Below are positions 19,406 to 61,588 of a DNA stretch of 64,000 nucleotides, one piece after another. This DNA comes from a virus. Taxonomy: Duplodnaviria > Heunggongvirae > Uroviricota > Caudoviricetes. Position 1 is the stretch's first letter. Every line of letters starts with the position of its first letter. Below the pieces are notes generated by a model that made no database searches, was not told the origin of the DNA, and saw nothing but the letters and a program-made list of their open reading frames with translations. The position numbers and the translations under genes are program-made. The stretch lies in IMG/VR virus record IMGVR_UViG_2571042445_000002. The stretch is one strand, 5' to 3'.

Positions 19406-20023
19406 ATGGTGGCCTGTTTGGGAGAAATAGCAGTGATTTGCGGCGCTAACGTTGCGGACGGAATCAGTCCGCTAATGAAAGCATACATCATATCAAGCGA
19501 GGATATGGTCATCGGATATATCGGCGAAGGTTCCTCTGCCGAATTAACGTCTCTGTGGCAGTCGCCATTTGAAGATAAAGCGATGGGCAGCATGTTAGGC
19601 GCTATTAGCGAGGCGGCATCATCTCTTGCAGGCATCGTGCAGACATCATCAGGGTACACGAGTAAAAGCCGGTTCAACTCCACCCTCGTGTGGGAAGGGC
19701 AACAACCGCCGGAATTTACCCTTGTACTGGATTTTTTAGCGATGTCCAACGCCAAAACGGAAGTGAATGACGCCATCACGACGTTGCTGAAAATGGCATC
19801 GCCAGAACTAAACGACATTACGCCTTTTGGTCGAGTCCCGGAGGCCGTAACGATAAATATCGGCAGGAACGTGATGTTAACGAACGTTGTGATCAAAAGC
19901 GTCAGCTATCAGCTTGACGCCCCGCGCACATCGGAAGGCTATTTCACCCACAACACGGTCACTCTGCAATGCAGTGGTAACACATCTATTAACCGCAGCA
20001 ATATCTCATCTGTTTTTGTTTAG
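19406..20023 (+). CDS. hypothetical protein (start uncertain, candidates 19406/19432/19474)
   Basis: 205-aa ORF in structural gene block. Confidence 0.4.
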   Translation: MVACLGEIAVICGANVADGISPLMKAYIISSEDMVIGYIGEGSSAELTSLWQSPFEDKAMGSMLGAISEAASSLAGIVQTSSGYTSKSRFNSTLVWEGQQPPEFTLVLDFLAMSNAKTEVNDAITTLLKMASPELNDITPFGRVPEAVTINIGRNVMLTNVVIKSVSYQLDAPRTSEGYFTHNTVTLQCSGNTSINRSNISSVFV

Positions 20024-57684: not shown

Positions 57685-58893
57685 ATGAGTCAGCAAGTAG
57701 AATCATCAAGCCTGGAGATCATCTCAACCGCAATTGAAACGCTGCGGACACAAATCGCGCTTATACAGAAACGAAATCCGGGCGATGACCTGTCAAAGCG
57801 ACTGCATGAGAGCGTCATTGCCACTACAGATAACCTGGTGGCGGAAATCAACCAGCTCCTTGATGATGGGGCAGTTGATTACAATAAGCTGGTGGATCAG
57901 TTTGAGGAATATCAGCAAGCCGTTAATGATGGCTTGATCCGTTTTTCTCAAGTCACTGGTGTATCAGCGACAGTTGAAAGCCTGGGGGATGCAGTTAATC
58001 AATTTGCCGCGAATATGCGTAATGAGATCGGCAATCTGGAGGCGCGTCTTGAGCAGGCAAATACACTGCGCAAATCTGCTGAAGTCGATTTGAGTCGTTA
58101 CAAAAAAGACTATCCGCCAAGCCTGACAAAACGACTGGATGTTGCGGAGAAAGATAACCGCACGCTGAAAAGAGAGCGTCGGGAACTAAAAGAGCGTTTA
58201 ACCAAGCTAAATCAGCAATGCGTTGAGTATCAAGGCGAACTCGTCACACTGCGTAAAAAGTTAGCAGCGGCGCAGAGCATTATTGAAACATTGAAACGAG
58301 AGTGCTCAGAGCTTGGTCATGATCTGAATCGCGCCTGTGGCATGGGGCAAAGGCCAGAGACATTCCCGCTAATGTATGACGGAAGAGAAGCTATTGCCTA
58401 TATCCATGAGTTTCCGCATGGTCTGGTCGCGGAGACTGGGCAACGTGGCGAAGCGTTGCTGACGGCAAATTACCATCAGCAAATCAGAACCAGCCGCCTG
58501 CTGACGATGGATGTGATCCCGTCAGTATGGGGAACGCCGCTTTACTACCGAATTCCTGGCTTCGAAACTGACTGGAATACCGACATAGACGAATGTCTGG
58601 CAGATAAAATTATGGCGTACCTTGAAACGGATTTTCCACGCTTGCATCGCCGGATTATGGACTCTAAGGATGCACCGATCGACGAATTGAAAATGCGTCC
58701 AGAGACGTTGGAGGCAATCAAGCAGACTGAGTTTGATACAGTGTTCAGTGTGGCCTGCATTCCAAGCAGCTTTCATGAAAGCATTCCGTTCATGCAGGGC
58801 GATCGCCGTCAGGAAATAATTGATGCTTGCCGGGTATGGGCGAACGAGTGGGATAAGAAGAACGGTGGAGTTGAAAATCTTTACGGGAAATAA
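57685..58893 (+). CDS. hypothetical protein with N-terminal coiled-coil
   Basis: 402 aa; SD AAAGGGAAC. Confidence 0.45.
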   Translation: MSQQVESSSLEIISTAIETLRTQIALIQKRNPGDDLSKRLHESVIATTDNLVAEINQLLDDGAVDYNKLVDQFEEYQQAVNDGLIRFSQVTGVSATVESLGDAVNQFAANMRNEIGNLEARLEQANTLRKSAEVDLSRYKKDYPPSLTKRLDVAEKDNRTLKRERRELKERLTKLNQQCVEYQGELVTLRKKLAAAQSIIETLKRECSELGHDLNRACGMGQRPETFPLMYDGREAIAYIHEFPHGLVAETGQRGEALLTANYHQQIRTSRLLTMDVIPSVWGTPLYYRIPGFETDWNTDIDECLADKIMAYLETDFPRLHRRIMDSKDAPIDELKMRPETLEAIKQTEFDTVFSVACIPSSFHESIPFMQGDRRQEIIDACRVWANEWDKKNGGVENLYGK

Positions 58894-58930
58894 TGTATTA
58901 GAAAATTAAAATTGTTTTTCTAACATATTG
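58893..58930. promoter_or_regulatory. operator-like palindrome ATGTATTAGAAAATTAAAATTGTTTTTCTAACATATTG
   Basis: Half-sites ATTAGAAAA and TTTTCTAAC inverted around AATTAAAATTG; second copy AGTGTTAGAAAGTAAATTTT at 59044-59063. Confidence 0.5.
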
Positions 58931-58981
58931 ATTATGTAGTTAACTTAACATAGAATTTTTCGTGCTGGTGGGGAGCTTCCC

Positions 58982-59044
58982 ATGTCGCTTGCGGGTTTGA
59001 TAGTCACTTCATTGTCTTTCCCCACCAGCATCAAACAATTTTAA
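58982..59044 (+). CDS. 20-codon hydrophobic small ORF (MSLAGLIVTSLSFPTSIKQF) enclosed by an 11-bp hairpin; candidate type I toxin-like peptide
   Basis: Stem 58964-58974 / 59019-29 sequesters the GGGGAG SD-like element; not in ORF track (below 60 aa). Confidence 0.25.
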   Translation: MSLAGLIVTSLSFPTSIKQF

Positions 59045-59553
59045 GTGTTAGAAAGTAAATTTTAAGGTAAGGGAAAGCTCCGGCACCGTGCAAATACATG
59101 CCCGGCAGGTTTAGTGCGTAAAGTGGTTTCAGCGAGAGCATTTTACGGAGTAAACGACAGTGACTTGAGCCACGGAAGGTCTTTTTATGGTGTTCATTGA
59201 TGATGATCTGGCAGTGAGTATGTTAAGTGGGCCAGGCTGCATCGGGTCATCATCAGTGCACATCCTCAACGTTAAGGAGGCGCAGAGTTGGGTTTTCCTC
59301 TTATTTTGCTGACTCTGAGTCTCCTTAACGTTGCGGTAATGCACCTATGCGGATGTGGCCTTGCATTGTGTCTTGAAAGAATGGGGTAAGGCCGGGGATA
59401 TCCTCAGGGGGAGGCACCCCCGCTGCAACGAACAGCCACAGACGGCAGTCGAGTGATGGAAACGTGCAAAGACTTTAAACCTCGTTACGGCTGGCGTGGC
59501 AAACGCGACAACCGAGACAGAGCGGTGACGGGCGGAGAGAGAGCCGCTTCAAG

Positions 59554-59628
59554 ATAAAAGCCGACTATGGATTCCTTTCTGCGGGCCTTTGAAAGTGAAT
59601 CTTGCTCAGGCAGTCGGCTTTTATGTTG
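59554..59628 (+). terminator. hairpin ATAAAAGCCGACT ... AGTCGGCTTTTAT (13-bp stem, large loop) with U-tract
   Basis: Perfect 13-bp complementarity 59554-59566 / 59612-59624. Confidence 0.4.
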
Positions 59629-59753
59629 ATACGTAGCGATAACCGCGACAGGCGCGGCGGTAAGTATGGCGGGGTTATTCCTTCCCCGTTGAGGACACCG
59701 AGTTGCCAGGTTGACCATACGCCTAAGTGGCAATACCGCGAGTGGGATATTTG

Positions 59754-59776
59754 CCCACCTTCGGGTGGGTGTTTTT
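59754..59776 (+). terminator. rho-independent terminator CCCACC-TTCG-GGTGGG + TGTTTTTT
   Basis: UUCG tetraloop hairpin followed by T6 run; implies a + strand transcript across the ORF-poor region. Confidence 0.65.
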
Positions 59777-60238
59777 TCAGTGTTTTCGTCATGGTTAGCG
59801 ACTTTGCGGCGGTTTAGAACCCGACCATTAAAGTAAATGCAAACGATGATCTGATGATGGTAGCGGCCTAAGAAGCCTGACGCCACGGGGTATGAGTCGT
59901 CCCCCGTCAAAAAATCGACCGCAGAGTGTCCCCGTCTGTGTATTAGGGAACGGGGAGGCATAACAGGCAAGGGCGCTGGTGTGATTAACCAGATGAATGA
60001 GAAGGGTCAGGTCTTTCTGGTCAGCGCCCTTACCTGTTACGTCCCTCCCGCGTAACAGCCATTGGTTAATGGCTTTCTGGGATAATGTCTTGTAACGGGT
60101 ATATCCCGTCATGCTGAAGGCGCTAATCACGCTGGAAGCCAGGGTTATGCATCCCCTGTTACCGAATTGCAGCCAGGGCGCGGTGCGCCGAAAAGCATAC
60201 GGAGGTGGAAGCCCTCGCCGGAGACGTACCCGGCAAGT

Positions 60239-60313
60239 GATGGTGTAGCTCAGTGGTAGAGCAGTTGGCTGTTAACCAACTGGTCGGTGGTTCGAATCCA
60301 CTCACCATCGCCA
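60239..60313 (+). tRNA. tRNA-Asn (anticodon GTT)
   Basis: Cloverleaf parsed manually: acceptor GATGGTG/CACCATC, D-arm GCTC-AGTGGTA-GAGC, anticodon loop CTGTTAA, T-loop TTCGAAT, 3' CCA encoded. Confidence 0.8.
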
Positions 60314-60315
60314 AT

Positions 60316-60391
60316 GCCGGTTTAGCTCAGTTGGTAGAGCGCCTGCCTTGTAAGCAGGATGTCAGCGGTTCGAGTCCGTTAACCGGCACCA
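60316..60391 (+). tRNA. tRNA-Thr (anticodon TGT)
   Basis: Acceptor GCCGGTT/AACCGGC, anticodon stem CCTGC/GCAGG with loop CTTGTAA, T-loop TTCGAGT, CCA encoded; 2 nt after tRNA-Asn. Confidence 0.8.
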
Positions 60392-60392
60392 A

Positions 60393-60479
60393 CACAACAG
60401 GTAAGGGTATTTTGCGACGTCGGAGATCGCCGAGCTTGGCAGAGGGTTCGAATCCCTACGAAGTACCCTTACCGTTGTG
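60393..60479 (+). other. tRNA-like element: canonical T-loop (GGTTCGAATCC) and D-arm-like hairpin enclosed by a 16-17 bp inverted repeat; lacks anticodon arm (pseudo-tRNA or structured RNA)
   Basis: IR CACAACAGGTAAGGGTA 60393-60409 / TACCCTTACCGTTGTG 60464-60479; cannot be folded into a full cloverleaf. Confidence 0.3.
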
Positions 60480-60579
60480 ATGAATGCACAGGCTGATGTG
60501 CCGCAACTACAGTAGTGCGCGCTTTGCGGGGCTTGCTACAACCCTGTGTCGGAGTTCAGCACCGACCATCACAATCACT

Positions 60580-60666
60580 GGAGAGTAGGGAGCATGGTGC
60601 TCAAGCGGTCTTGAAAACCGTCCCATTGCGCAAGCGATGATGGTTCGATTCCATTACTCTCCGCCA
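60580..60666 (+). tRNA. atypical tRNA-like gene, possibly tRNA-Ser(TGA) with long variable arm and unusual D-arm
   Basis: Acceptor GGAGAGT/ACTCTCC + G + CCA; anticodon arm GCGGT-CTTGAAA-ACCGT; T-arm GATGG-TTCGATT-CCATT; D-arm atypical (5-bp stem, 3-nt loop). Confidence 0.35.
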
Positions 60667-60922
60667 GCGCAACGTTAAGAGTATTTGGCTAATTAAGCGA
60701 ATGCCGGAAGCAGAACCGGATCACCAAATGCTCTTACCATTGCGGTGAATGCGGCTAAGCGCACGCGGAACAGTTAAAACAGTAAAGGTGGTCTTTTTAC
60801 TGGCGTAACGAGAATCCATAAGTGATCCGGCGTTAATTGTTAACTGGTTAACGTCACCGGGAGGCACCCGGCACCGCAACCTAACAGCAATGGCGTTTTG
60901 TCTTAAAAGGTGGCTGCAAGTG

Positions 60923-61051
60923 ATGGATTTTTGGGCGTTTGCCGATAAAAACCCGGAGTGGACATTATTGTTTCTGCTGGTGGTTGCATACGGGGTAGAG
61001 CAAGCGGCAAAAGCCTTACGCGGTTCTGGCAAAAAGCGTAAGCGTAATTAA
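60923..61051 (+). CDS. 42-aa small membrane protein candidate (MDFWAFADKNPEWTLLFLLVVAYGVEQAAKALRGSGKKRKRN)
   Basis: Single hydrophobic helix plus basic C-terminus; SD AAGGTGG; located between tRNA-like genes; below ORF-track size cutoff. Confidence 0.3.
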   Translation: MDFWAFADKNPEWTLLFLLVVAYGVEQAAKALRGSGKKRKRN

Positions 61052-61060
61052 CAGTAATCT

Positions 61061-61136
61061 GGCCCTTTAGCTCAGTGGTTAGAGCGGGCGACTCATAATC
61101 GCACGGTCACCGGTTCAAGTCCGGTAGGGGCCACCA
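61061..61136 (+). tRNA. tRNA with CAT anticodon, ileX-like (tRNA-Ile2/lysidine type or elongator Met)
   Basis: GGCCCTTTAGCTCAGTGGTTAGAGCGGGCGACTCATAATCGC...GGTTCAAGTCCGGTAGGGGCCACCA closely resembles E. coli ileX as recalled. Confidence 0.8.
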
Positions 61137-61588
61137 CATTTGGTTGTAACACGGCGTATGGCACATGCGTCGTTAGCGGTCTGGTGTAGCTGTTAGGTAC
61201 CTTTTACTAACACTGCATGGGCACACCAGGTAGCCGGAATGTGCAAGCCCCGTTCATAGCGTCGGACTGCGGATTCACCATCCTGGCGATTCGGTGTGAC
61301 AGCCGGAAGAGCACGGCGTACAACAGGAAAAGGCGTTTAATTAGCGTGAGCGCCGTTTCCGTTGTGGTAATTGCGGCTATGCGCTCGTGACGAAGCCATT
61401 TTCATTCACTACGTTCTGATAAGTGTCGTCGCCGGGCGTGGCTAACCTGGCAGGTGGAGGCACCACCGCCACAACTCCTTTCAATTCATCATATAGCCGC
61501 TCAGGCTGTAACCCTTAATTAATACGAAGTTACGACGTCACTACCGGTTCAGCCGGGGGATAGTCGCGCGTGTAAAAAAGGAGACGTT

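Follow-up and report, generated by a model that had tools for sequence, protein, structure and literature searches.

What are the two tRNA-like sequences that interrupt the tRNA region of a D6/P1-like phage-plasmid: decayed tRNAs, processing decoys or non-canonical tRNAs? The question was raised by an earlier note, made from sequence alone, on a 64,000-nucleotide (nt) stretch of viral DNA (IMG/VR record IMGVR_UViG_2571042445_000002), which as a whole is called here the window. The two sequences, element 1 (60393–60479) and element 2 (60580–60666), are present as described there, on the plus strand between tRNA-Thr (UGU; 60316–60391) and the CAU-anticodon tRNA, tRNA-Ile2 (61061–61136). Across 60200–61200, the window matches phages D6, P7 and P1 at 92–96% identity, in pieces. 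The evidence laid out below makes it probable that element 2 is a working phage tRNA-Ser and that element 1 is a conserved non-coding mimic of the tRNA elbow, carried on a stem scaffold that displays various cargos. The earlier note did not include three findings: P1 itself carries element 1, the stem of this element serves as a scaffold for multiple cargos, and element 2 is already annotated.

Element 1 starts directly after tRNA-Thr and consists of a long helix that encloses a tRNA-like interior. The 5' strand of the stem (60393–60414) pairs with the 3' strand (60459–60479) through 21 pairs, G.U pairs included, with one bulged A (60399); an inverted repeat had been noted here, although its length had been put at only 16–17 base pairs (bp). 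The D-arm-like hairpin and the canonical T-loop that had been recognized earlier can both be read in the sequence. The former, GCGA-CGUCGGAGA-UCGC (60414–60430), has a 9-nt loop with GG and resembles a D arm with G18 and G19; the latter is part of the T arm AGGG-UUCGAAU-CCCU (60443–60457), which is invariant in all variants of the element. There is, as had been observed, no anticodon arm; its place is taken by a 2–3 bp stub, GCC-GAGCUU-GGC (60429–60440), with constant closing GCC/GGY and a variable loop of 6–7 nt (GAGCUU, GUGCUU, AUUAUU, AUUCUU, AUUGCUG and AUGCAG among the variants). The long stem abuts the D-like hairpin (with an invariant pair, G23-C68, followed by two pairs that covary), leaving no position 8–9 linker, and a single unpaired A separates the T stem from the long stem. 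A fold of −41.4 kcal/mol (z = −5.5) is predicted for the 91-nt stretch and is equalled by none of 200 shuffles.

A comparison with ARAGORN and Rfam separated the two elements: ARAGORN calls element 2 and makes no call, either of a tRNA or of a transfer-messenger RNA (tmRNA), on element 1. A permissive Rfam search (E ≤ 10) of positions 60385–60490 produced no tRNA, YrlA or tmRNA hit and only chance-level matches, namely, to mascRNA (14.9 bits, E 0.75), to tRNA-Sec (14.6 bits, E 1.1, the best within the tRNA clan) and to a plastid T-arm fragment. With the stub in place of an anticodon arm, no CCA and no detection by these models, element 1 was rejected as a tRNA; rather than a cloverleaf, its shape is that of a stalk topped by a mimic of the tRNA elbow, so that the "non-canonical tRNA" option applies to element 2 and not to this sequence.

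The stem of element 1 is well supported by comparative evidence. In a set of 16 distinct variants, 94% of the cells in the proposed structure are standard pairs, compared with 30–54% when the 3' partner is slid by 1–3 columns. Two-sided changes occur in 13 of the 21 pairs, and the covariation score was reached by none of 500 shuffles. The stem contains 31 G.U cells against 5 A.C cells, and a covariance model built from the structure (R1) scores 110 bits on the plus strand and 26 bits on the minus strand. The G.U excess together with the strand scores indicates that the pairing takes place in an RNA read from the plus strand, the same strand as the tRNAs, which argues against a purely DNA-level inverted repeat. 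Variation is unevenly distributed: 75% of the stem columns are variable, versus 4 of the 38 columns of the core formed by the D-like hairpin and the T arm (2 of 17 in the hairpin itself).

The distribution of element 1 extends far beyond the window. The 106-nt query (60385–60490) is matched at 100% by an 89.7-kb E. coli plasmid and by the RefSeq plasmid NZ_CP085065.1, and element 1 is also found in D6, SJ46, RCS47 and 488 plasmids. Among complete E. coli genomes, 464 of 5426 carry it, with 466 of the 475 places on plasmids, and the only feature annotated beneath the match in these genomes is the neighbouring tRNA-Thr. The P1 copy is 98% identical and lies beneath the 3' end of the annotated gene plp, on the opposite strand. 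As seen in the P1 locus (L003), plp (AF234172, 69472–69849) overlaps the 3' end of tRNA-Thr and the whole of element 1; the window contains no open reading frame (ORF) corresponding to plp, and the 3' part of this ORF call may be spurious. In P7, the stem is retained with compensatory changes around a different interior that has no T arm. Enterobacter phage BUCT554 (Uetakevirus) has a copy with 85% identity within a non-coding unit that, judging by its sequence, is flanked by a promoter-like site and a terminator-like hairpin; the locus has no tRNA gene. Pattern scans of viral contigs returned 100 stretches representing 37 distinct variants. In lambdoid-type prophages, element 1 occupies the late leader, after the post-promoter terminator and ahead of the lysis genes, and the 8 rescanned lambdoid loci have no tRNA gene nearby; in another locus, L069, Arg, Tyr and Thr tRNAs and element 1 are closely packed. 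A scan of species-representative genomes yielded a single Escherichia contig, which makes element 1 a feature of enterobacterial mobile elements. Rfam has no family for element 1 or for the long-stem scaffold described next, and the literature that we searched contains no description of either.

Two further identities were considered for element 1 and discarded. An attachment-site remnant is ruled out by the covarying stem and by the late-leader position away from any integrase. A nut/boxA site was considered since the 3' side of the lambdoid stem contains UGCUCUUU, with a boxB-like hairpin after it; this sequence is base-paired there and reads UACCCUUA in the P1-type stem.

The stem also occurs without the tRNA-like interior. 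Weaker matches to model R1, with the same stem and other interiors, were found in the window, P7, D6-like contigs and lambdoid leaders. The window has two such paralogous cassettes on the plus strand: one at 59956–60044 (20–22 bits; inverted repeat I2), with a non-tRNA-like cargo, GCATAACAGGCAAGGGCGCTG...CAGCGCCCTTACCTGTTACG, and another, with yet another cargo, directly after tRNA-Ser at 60667–60747 (25.3 bits, E 1.5e-4). The rV5-like phages share the post-tRNA-Ser cassette, for which a homologous stretch exists in phage Mangalyan, and have an AT-rich version of the scaffold between tRNA-Tyr and tRNA-Ser. We scanned viral contigs for the lambdoid form of the stem (CAGGTAAGRGCATT, 35–65 nt, AGTGCTCTTTCC), leaving the interior unconstrained, and found the scaffold in at least 120 contigs (loci L140–L255). 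Among the 126 readable instances, at least 77 distinct cargos can be told apart, which group crudely into about 40 clusters; 9 of them are of the element 1 type. T-arm-like hairpins appear in several other cargos, including one class in which the T arm comes first. Element 1 thus belongs to a larger family of hairpin cassettes built on a reusable stem, for which we found no published description. That the scaffold sequence is retained and the cargo exchanged points to a division of labour in which the scaffold serves expression, processing or stability and the cargo is what acts.

Apart from these cassettes, the rV5-like loci L105 (490–588) and L106 (489–587) contain a tRNA-like gene of 99 nt, in which the acceptor stem and T arm are proper and the body is irregular; ARAGORN assigns it a 4-base anticodon (atcc), and the Mangalyan record lists it as tRNA-Lys.

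For the interior of element 1, a fold into a D arm plus a T arm, which we consider plausible, finds its best available support in a parallel class of cargos. The L160 class, with at least 8 instances, is unrelated to element 1 in sequence and has the same layout, with a GCAU-AUCUGGGAA-AUGC hairpin, a connector and then GCGG-UUCGAUU-CCGC, which a single base separates from the 3' strand of the stem. Several observations weigh against this assignment. The D-like and T helices are constant in the element 1 family, so that the interior rests on resemblance and on the L160 class; this constancy partly follows from two of our search patterns, which fixed parts of the core, although BLAST, which fixes no part, likewise returned only copies with the same core. 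Furthermore, RNAalifold favours another interior, in which the D loop pairs with the T loop; in real tRNAs, the contact between these loops is the tertiary G18/G19-Psi55/C56 interaction. A relaxed pattern, with the D stem free to change, recovered real tRNAs and one unrelated mini tRNA-like sequence, and no diverged member of the family.

This unrelated sequence, of about 62 nt, is located in a viral contig (L135, 1390–1452) and combines an acceptor stem and CCA with a D-loop-like GUCGGAGA and a T arm; it has no anticodon arm, and ARAGORN gives no call.

Element 2 presents a different case. All the features listed for it in the earlier note are there: a 7-bp acceptor stem, GGAGAGU/ACUCUCC (60580–60586 with 60656–60662), followed by G73 (60663) and an encoded CCA (60664–60666); a minimal D arm, GAGC-AUGGU-GCUC (60590–60602; 4 bp, 5-nt loop), preceded by A8 (60587); an anticodon arm, GCGGU-CUUGAAA-ACCGU (60605–60621), with UGA at 60612–60614; and a long variable region, which forms a 5-bp arm with a GCAA loop (60625–60638) ahead of the T arm (60639–60655). 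ARAGORN identifies the entire element (60580–60666) as tRNA-Ser(tga), PGAP places a tRNA-Ser at the corresponding position of plasmid NZ_CP085065.1, and D6-like plasmids are reported to carry Asn, Thr, Ser and Met tRNAs (PMC6799933). The D6 record lists a copy of element 2 with the remark that tRNAscan gave no amino acid; the reason may be a C.U mismatch in the D stem of that copy, which is absent from the window and from P7. The top Rfam model is tRNA-Sec (RF01852), at 44.6 bits, under the gathering score of 47; an actual tRNA-Sec was rejected given this score, the anticodon UGA rather than UCA and a branch of 12 rather than 13 bp.

Relatives of element 2 were detected by BLAST in 401 phage records. 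We aligned 12 homologues from eight phage groups (P1-, rV5-, T5- and T4-like phages, phi92, and Vibrio, Acinetobacter and Streptomyces phages), parsing the helices by hand. Every helix position is occupied by a standard pair in all 12 sequences, and two-sided changes are seen at D-stem positions 2–4, acceptor positions 4–6, in the anticodon stem, in the variable arm and at T-stem position 3. The D stem alone occurs as GAGC/GCUC, GCUC/GAGC, GCUA/UAGC, GCGG/CCGC, GCGC/GCGC, GCGA/UCGC and GCGU/ACGC, around a loop of 3–6 nt. Maintenance of all helices by compensatory change implies purifying selection on a working tRNA rather than decay, so that the suggestion of a decayed tRNA does not hold for this intact element. 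The SerRS identity set is likewise conserved: G2-C71 and A3-U70 are invariant, G1-C72 is present in 11 of 12 homologues, and position 73 is G in 9 and U in 3. Going by its sequence, the window copy, with its long variable arm, G73 and G1-C72/G2-C71/A3-U70, has the features required by SerRS and probably acts as a phage-type serine tRNA reading UCA; with the usual U34 modification, it would read other UCN codons too. The window ORFs use UCA, ACA and AUA at 14.4, 19.6 and 12.6 per 1000 codons, respectively, roughly 2–2.5 times the E. coli values; these are the codons of tRNA-Ser(UGA), tRNA-Thr(UGU) and tRNA-Ile2, in keeping with the usual logic of phage tRNAs. Element 2 would then supply a codon about twice as common in the phage as in the host.

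Some observations on element 2 point the other way. One of them is the D-stem mismatch in the D6 copy. Canonical bacterial tRNA-Ser species combine U8 with a short D stem that carries a large loop, whereas element 2 differs from the host tRNA-Ser in its A8 and 5-nt D loop. In E. coli serT, position 8 is U and the large D loop closes a stem of 3 bp; the features shared with element 2 are UGA, G1-C72/G2-C71/A3-U70, G73, an encoded CCA and a long variable arm.

This unusual shape has a precedent. Species of (8/4) tRNA-Ser have been reported in bacteriophages, where they were found as near-misses of the tRNA-Sec model, and SerRS accepts tRNA-Sec-like bodies (Mukai et al. 2017, NAR 45:2776, PMC5389517). 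Element 2 resembles these and the allo-tRNAs in its serine anticodon (UGA), long variable arm, G73, tRNA-Sec-like compact D stem-loop, near-hit to the tRNA-Sec model and homologues in eight phage groups. Its 12-bp acceptor/T branch can be drawn as 8/4, with A8-U65 and G49 paired to the C before the variable arm, or as 7/5, with G49.U65. A8, G49.U65 and the C preceding the variable arm are invariant in all 12 homologues, a constancy that an 8/4 fold would need, and because these are the four deciding bases, covariation does not separate the two pairings, a point that counts against a firm class assignment. Compared with allo-tRNAs by description, element 2 differs in having a 4-bp D stem with a loop of 3–6 nt instead of a long stem with a tetraloop. 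Element 2 fits the (8/4) tRNA-Ser class wherever the fit can be tested, the choice between 8/4 and 7/5 pairing aside. It is a structurally intact tRNA-Ser of presumably ordinary function and non-canonical shape, already annotated and not new, and provides a well-sampled example of the known, oddly shaped phage serine tRNAs that pipelines often miss or call pseudogenes.

What element 1 does is a separate matter; its processing, stability, partner and benefit to the phage are inferred. We favour a tRNA-elbow mimic that would act in trans, with an additional cis-processing benefit in the P1 context, a proposal drawn from sequence comparison. Phages would use the 21-bp stem to display varied small RNA cargos in leader transcripts of the lytic cycle. 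The element 1 hairpin could be freed from the polycistronic leader by RNase III acting on the stem (a helix of about 21 bp is close to the minimal length for this enzyme), by RNase P, which would find its site by distance from the elbow, or by the two enzymes together. RNase P measures the elbow plus 12 stacked pairs, and 12 such pairs counted from the T loop put the predicted cleavage site at 60407/60408. The near-invariant D and T loops of the released cargo would then bind a tRNA-handling factor. In P1/D6-like genomes, where the stem begins one base past the CCA of tRNA-Thr, a cut in the stem would release the 3' end of that tRNA as well. The processing decoy mentioned in the earlier note is a possible description of element 1.

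Parts of this scheme meet with difficulties. Element 1 lacks a CCA, a single-stranded 3' end and the position 8–9 linker, and its helix runs beyond the predicted RNase P site, all of which would make cleavage less efficient. Other cargos on the scaffold are not tRNA-like, so that processing of the scaffold needs no mimic. Finally, P7 is a viable phage without the tRNA-like cargo, which makes element 1 dispensable.

The main rival is that element 1 is cis punctuation only: a pseudo-tRNA would recruit RNase P and the stem RNase III, merely separating tRNA-Thr from the downstream RNAs. We regard this as unlikely, albeit a serious contender. RNase P separates polycistronic tRNAs in E. coli (PMC4176162); the spacing of one base from the tRNA-Thr CCA favours such a role, as does the tight Arg-Tyr-Thr-element 1 packing in L069, and in the rV5-like phages tRNA-Ser is preceded by the AT-rich scaffold and followed by a stretch homologous to the downstream cassette of the window. 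However, element 1 also resides in leaders of lambdoid and Uetakevirus genomes that are free of tRNAs over several kilobases, P7 keeps the stem without a tRNA-like cargo, and real tRNAs, all of them RNase P substrates, vary freely in the D and T loops, whereas the core of element 1 is nearly invariant. The tRNA-free leaders, the absence of element 1 from P7 and D and T loops more constant than RNase P would require imply that release of tRNA-Thr is not the whole story.

Non-decoding RNAs with a tRNA-resembling fold within a longer transcript are known RNase P processing signals, among them mascRNA, the plant mitochondrial t-elements and the phage RNAs C4 of P1/P7, CI of P4 and M3 of phi80. RNase P cuts the non-tRNA RNAs C4 and M3, and P1 thus already matures an RNA, C4, in this way. 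C4, CI and M3 have no T loop, unlike element 1. The difference from mascRNA (RF01684) lies in the score of element 1 (14.9 bits versus a gathering score of 42.5), its lack of a CCA and its acceptor-like helix of 21 bp.

A bolder extension of the trans-acting mimic, which we put forward as speculative and rather doubtful, treats element 1 as one effector in an extensive, hypervariable library of hairpin-displayed small RNAs, carried in lytic-cycle leader transcripts by P1, D6, lambdoid prophages, Uetakevirus and rV5-like phages. Elbow mimics, of which there are at least two independent sequence classes, might act in trans by decoying or inhibiting host factors directed at tRNAs, such as defence nucleases that cleave tRNAs or enzymes that process them. 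Fast turnover of cargo at an accessory locus beside phage tRNA genes is, speculatively, what one would expect of a counter-defence locus. If so, this would be an RNA-based system of counter-defence cassettes next to phage tRNA genes. More generally, should the cassettes yield processed, trans-acting RNAs, they would represent a new layer of phage accessory function, occupying the "moron" position in which Shiga toxin genes and phage tRNAs are also found. Whatever its role, element 1 is a conserved, structured tRNA look-alike in a classical model phage, P1, that is listed in no annotation, and it led to a scaffold common to at least 120 viral contigs with dozens of cargos.

A DNA-level role of the inverted repeat appears improbable; the repeat would then form the termini of a miniature mobile element or a recombination linker for cargo shuffling, and the tRNA-like interior would have been captured by accident. 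The recurrence of the same termini around about 40 different cargos in at least 120 contigs, with several copies per leader, is compatible with this idea, and conserved flanks would favour exchange of cassettes by homologous recombination. The surplus of G.U over A.C cells (31 versus 5) and the plus-strand scores far above those of the minus strand speak for RNA, however, and compensatory double changes are not expected in transposase-bound ends.

Decay of both elements from a larger phage tRNA cluster, the other explanation contemplated in the earlier note, is very improbable. Element 1 does lack an anticodon arm and a CCA, some homologues of element 2 are marked "pseudo" or unannotated in the records, and the D6 copy has its D-stem mismatch; yet the homologues of element 2 in eight phage groups keep all helices by compensatory change, and the stem of element 1 covaries around a nearly invariant core across genomes whose flanks differ by about 25%. 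The structure of element 1 is maintained by compensatory changes in P1-like, lambdoid and Uetakevirus genomes, and its carriers include genomes without a tRNA cluster and loci with no tRNA gene nearby.

A bacterial Y RNA that binds Ro60 (Rsr) through the long stem is highly improbable as well. Like Y RNAs, which are 80–130 nt long and combine a long terminal stem with a tRNA-like domain, element 1, at about 88 nt, has a long end-closing stem, a domain mimicking D and T arms and no decoding function. The closest counterpart is Yrn1 of Deinococcus radiodurans, which shares the D-then-T topology, the reverse of YrlA (T arm, closed acceptor stem, D arm), and has a stem-loop between the two arms at the position of the anticodon arm (Chen et al. 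2014, PMC4201824). In contrast, there is no YrlA (RF02553) hit on the 106-nt stretch 60385–60490 at E ≤ 10, the Ro-binding motif GNCGAA(N)G is absent from the stem (60393–60414), the flanking genes in this phage leader context are, by homology to D6 and PGAP annotation, PmgS-like and orf6-like rather than rsr, and the carriers are mostly plasmids of E. coli, which usually lacks Rsr.

Element 1 also recalls the tRNA-like domain of tmRNA in possessing a T arm, a D-loop analogue and no anticodon arm, and differs from it in having no aminoacylatable end, no G3.U70 (position 3-70 is U.G in 12 of 16 variants and C-G otherwise), no P2 helix and no mRNA-like insert. The least probable of the explanations makes element 1 the tRNA-like half of a split phage tmRNA-like system with an upstream tag-like frame (59839–59871) as the other half: the frame is conserved in P1, P7, D6 and lambdoid leaders with seven peptide variants, the model of the two-piece betaproteobacterial tmRNA matches its lambdoid form in the coding part (18.8 bits, E 0.0011) and element 1 lies directly upstream of it in L012 and L063, but element 1 has no CCA and a U.G rather than G.U at 3-70, its D-then-T order with 12 nt between is unlike one-piece or permuted tmRNA, ARAGORN finds no tmRNA in the window or the rescanned loci, the leader's matches to Rfam tmRNA models fall well short of the gathering scores, and P7 has the tag and not element 1.

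The tag-like frame is of interest in itself. It consists of 10 codons, GCAAACGATGATCTGATGATGGTAGCGGCCTAA, on the plus strand about 550 nt upstream of element 1, is preceded by AAAGUAAAU and encodes A-N-D-D-L-M-M-V-A-A-stop, similar to the ssrA (tmRNA) tag; its stop codon is located in the loop of a small hairpin. The frame recurs in P1 (L003, at 1136), P7 (L002, 1135), D6 (L001, 1140) and the lambdoid loci L005, L006, L012, L055, L063, L084, L118, L120 and L125. The peptide variants include ANDEQFLAVA and ANDDLMLAAA, and there are a few silent nucleotide differences (CTG/CTT; GCA/GCT, the same Ala). The Rfam models that match, tmRNA_permuted (24.1 bits) and beta_tmRNA (the E 0.0011 match, in L055), do so in the coding part only and far below threshold. 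ARAGORN called no tRNA-like domain or tmRNA in the region of the frame, and the literature searched contains no description of it.

The setting of the two elements is a non-coding leader of about 1.3 kb, on the plus strand, between a PmgS-like ORF that ends at 58893 (by homology to D6 and PGAP annotation) and tRNA-Asn (60239–60313). A promoter-like site is located at 58928–58956. The stretch 58900–59750 is dense with long imperfect inverted repeats (arms of 17–38 nt, 78–94% complementary) and is closed by a strong terminator-like hairpin at 59752–59771. P1-type C1 operators were sought throughout the window with up to 3 mismatches allowed, and none was found.

Between elements 1 and 2, about 100 nt are occupied by conserved hairpins on the plus strand. 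The first, GCACA-GGCUGA-UGUGC (60485–60503), follows the element 1 cassette and shows compensatory changes in D6, P7 and BUCT554 (GCGCA/UGCGC, UCGCA/UGCGA); the second, UCGG-AGUUCAGCA-CCGA (60549–60566), is followed by CCAUCACAA. For the two hairpins together, compensatory changes are seen in D6, P7, BUCT554 and lambdoid leaders. In the last of these, a C/A-rich tail and a terminator come after the second hairpin, an arrangement that resembles the 3' end of a small RNA.

Downstream of tRNA-Ser and its hairpin cassette, the plus strand contains a partial stretch similar to STnc100, a prophage small RNA (60741–60878; 40.8 bits, gathering score 47), and, between this stretch and tRNA-Ile2, a small tciB/tciC-like ORF. 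A full STnc100 (109.7 bits) is found in L081 (4677–4888, minus strand), directly downstream of the element 1 homologue. The non-coding stretch 3' of tRNA-Ile2 (about 61150–61330, plus strand; GGCACATG.GTCGT.AGCGGTC...GGTAGCCGGAATGTGCAAG...) has no match in Rfam; it is homologous to a segment of BUCT554 (L004, about 2330–2495) that sits directly upstream of the element 1 homologue of that phage. Throughout the window, the T-loop motif GGTTCRANTCC occurs 6 times versus 0.23 expected: four sites are in called tRNAs, one is in element 1, and the sixth, an exact match (GGTTCAACTCC), is found at 19671–19681 on the plus strand, distant from the tRNA region.

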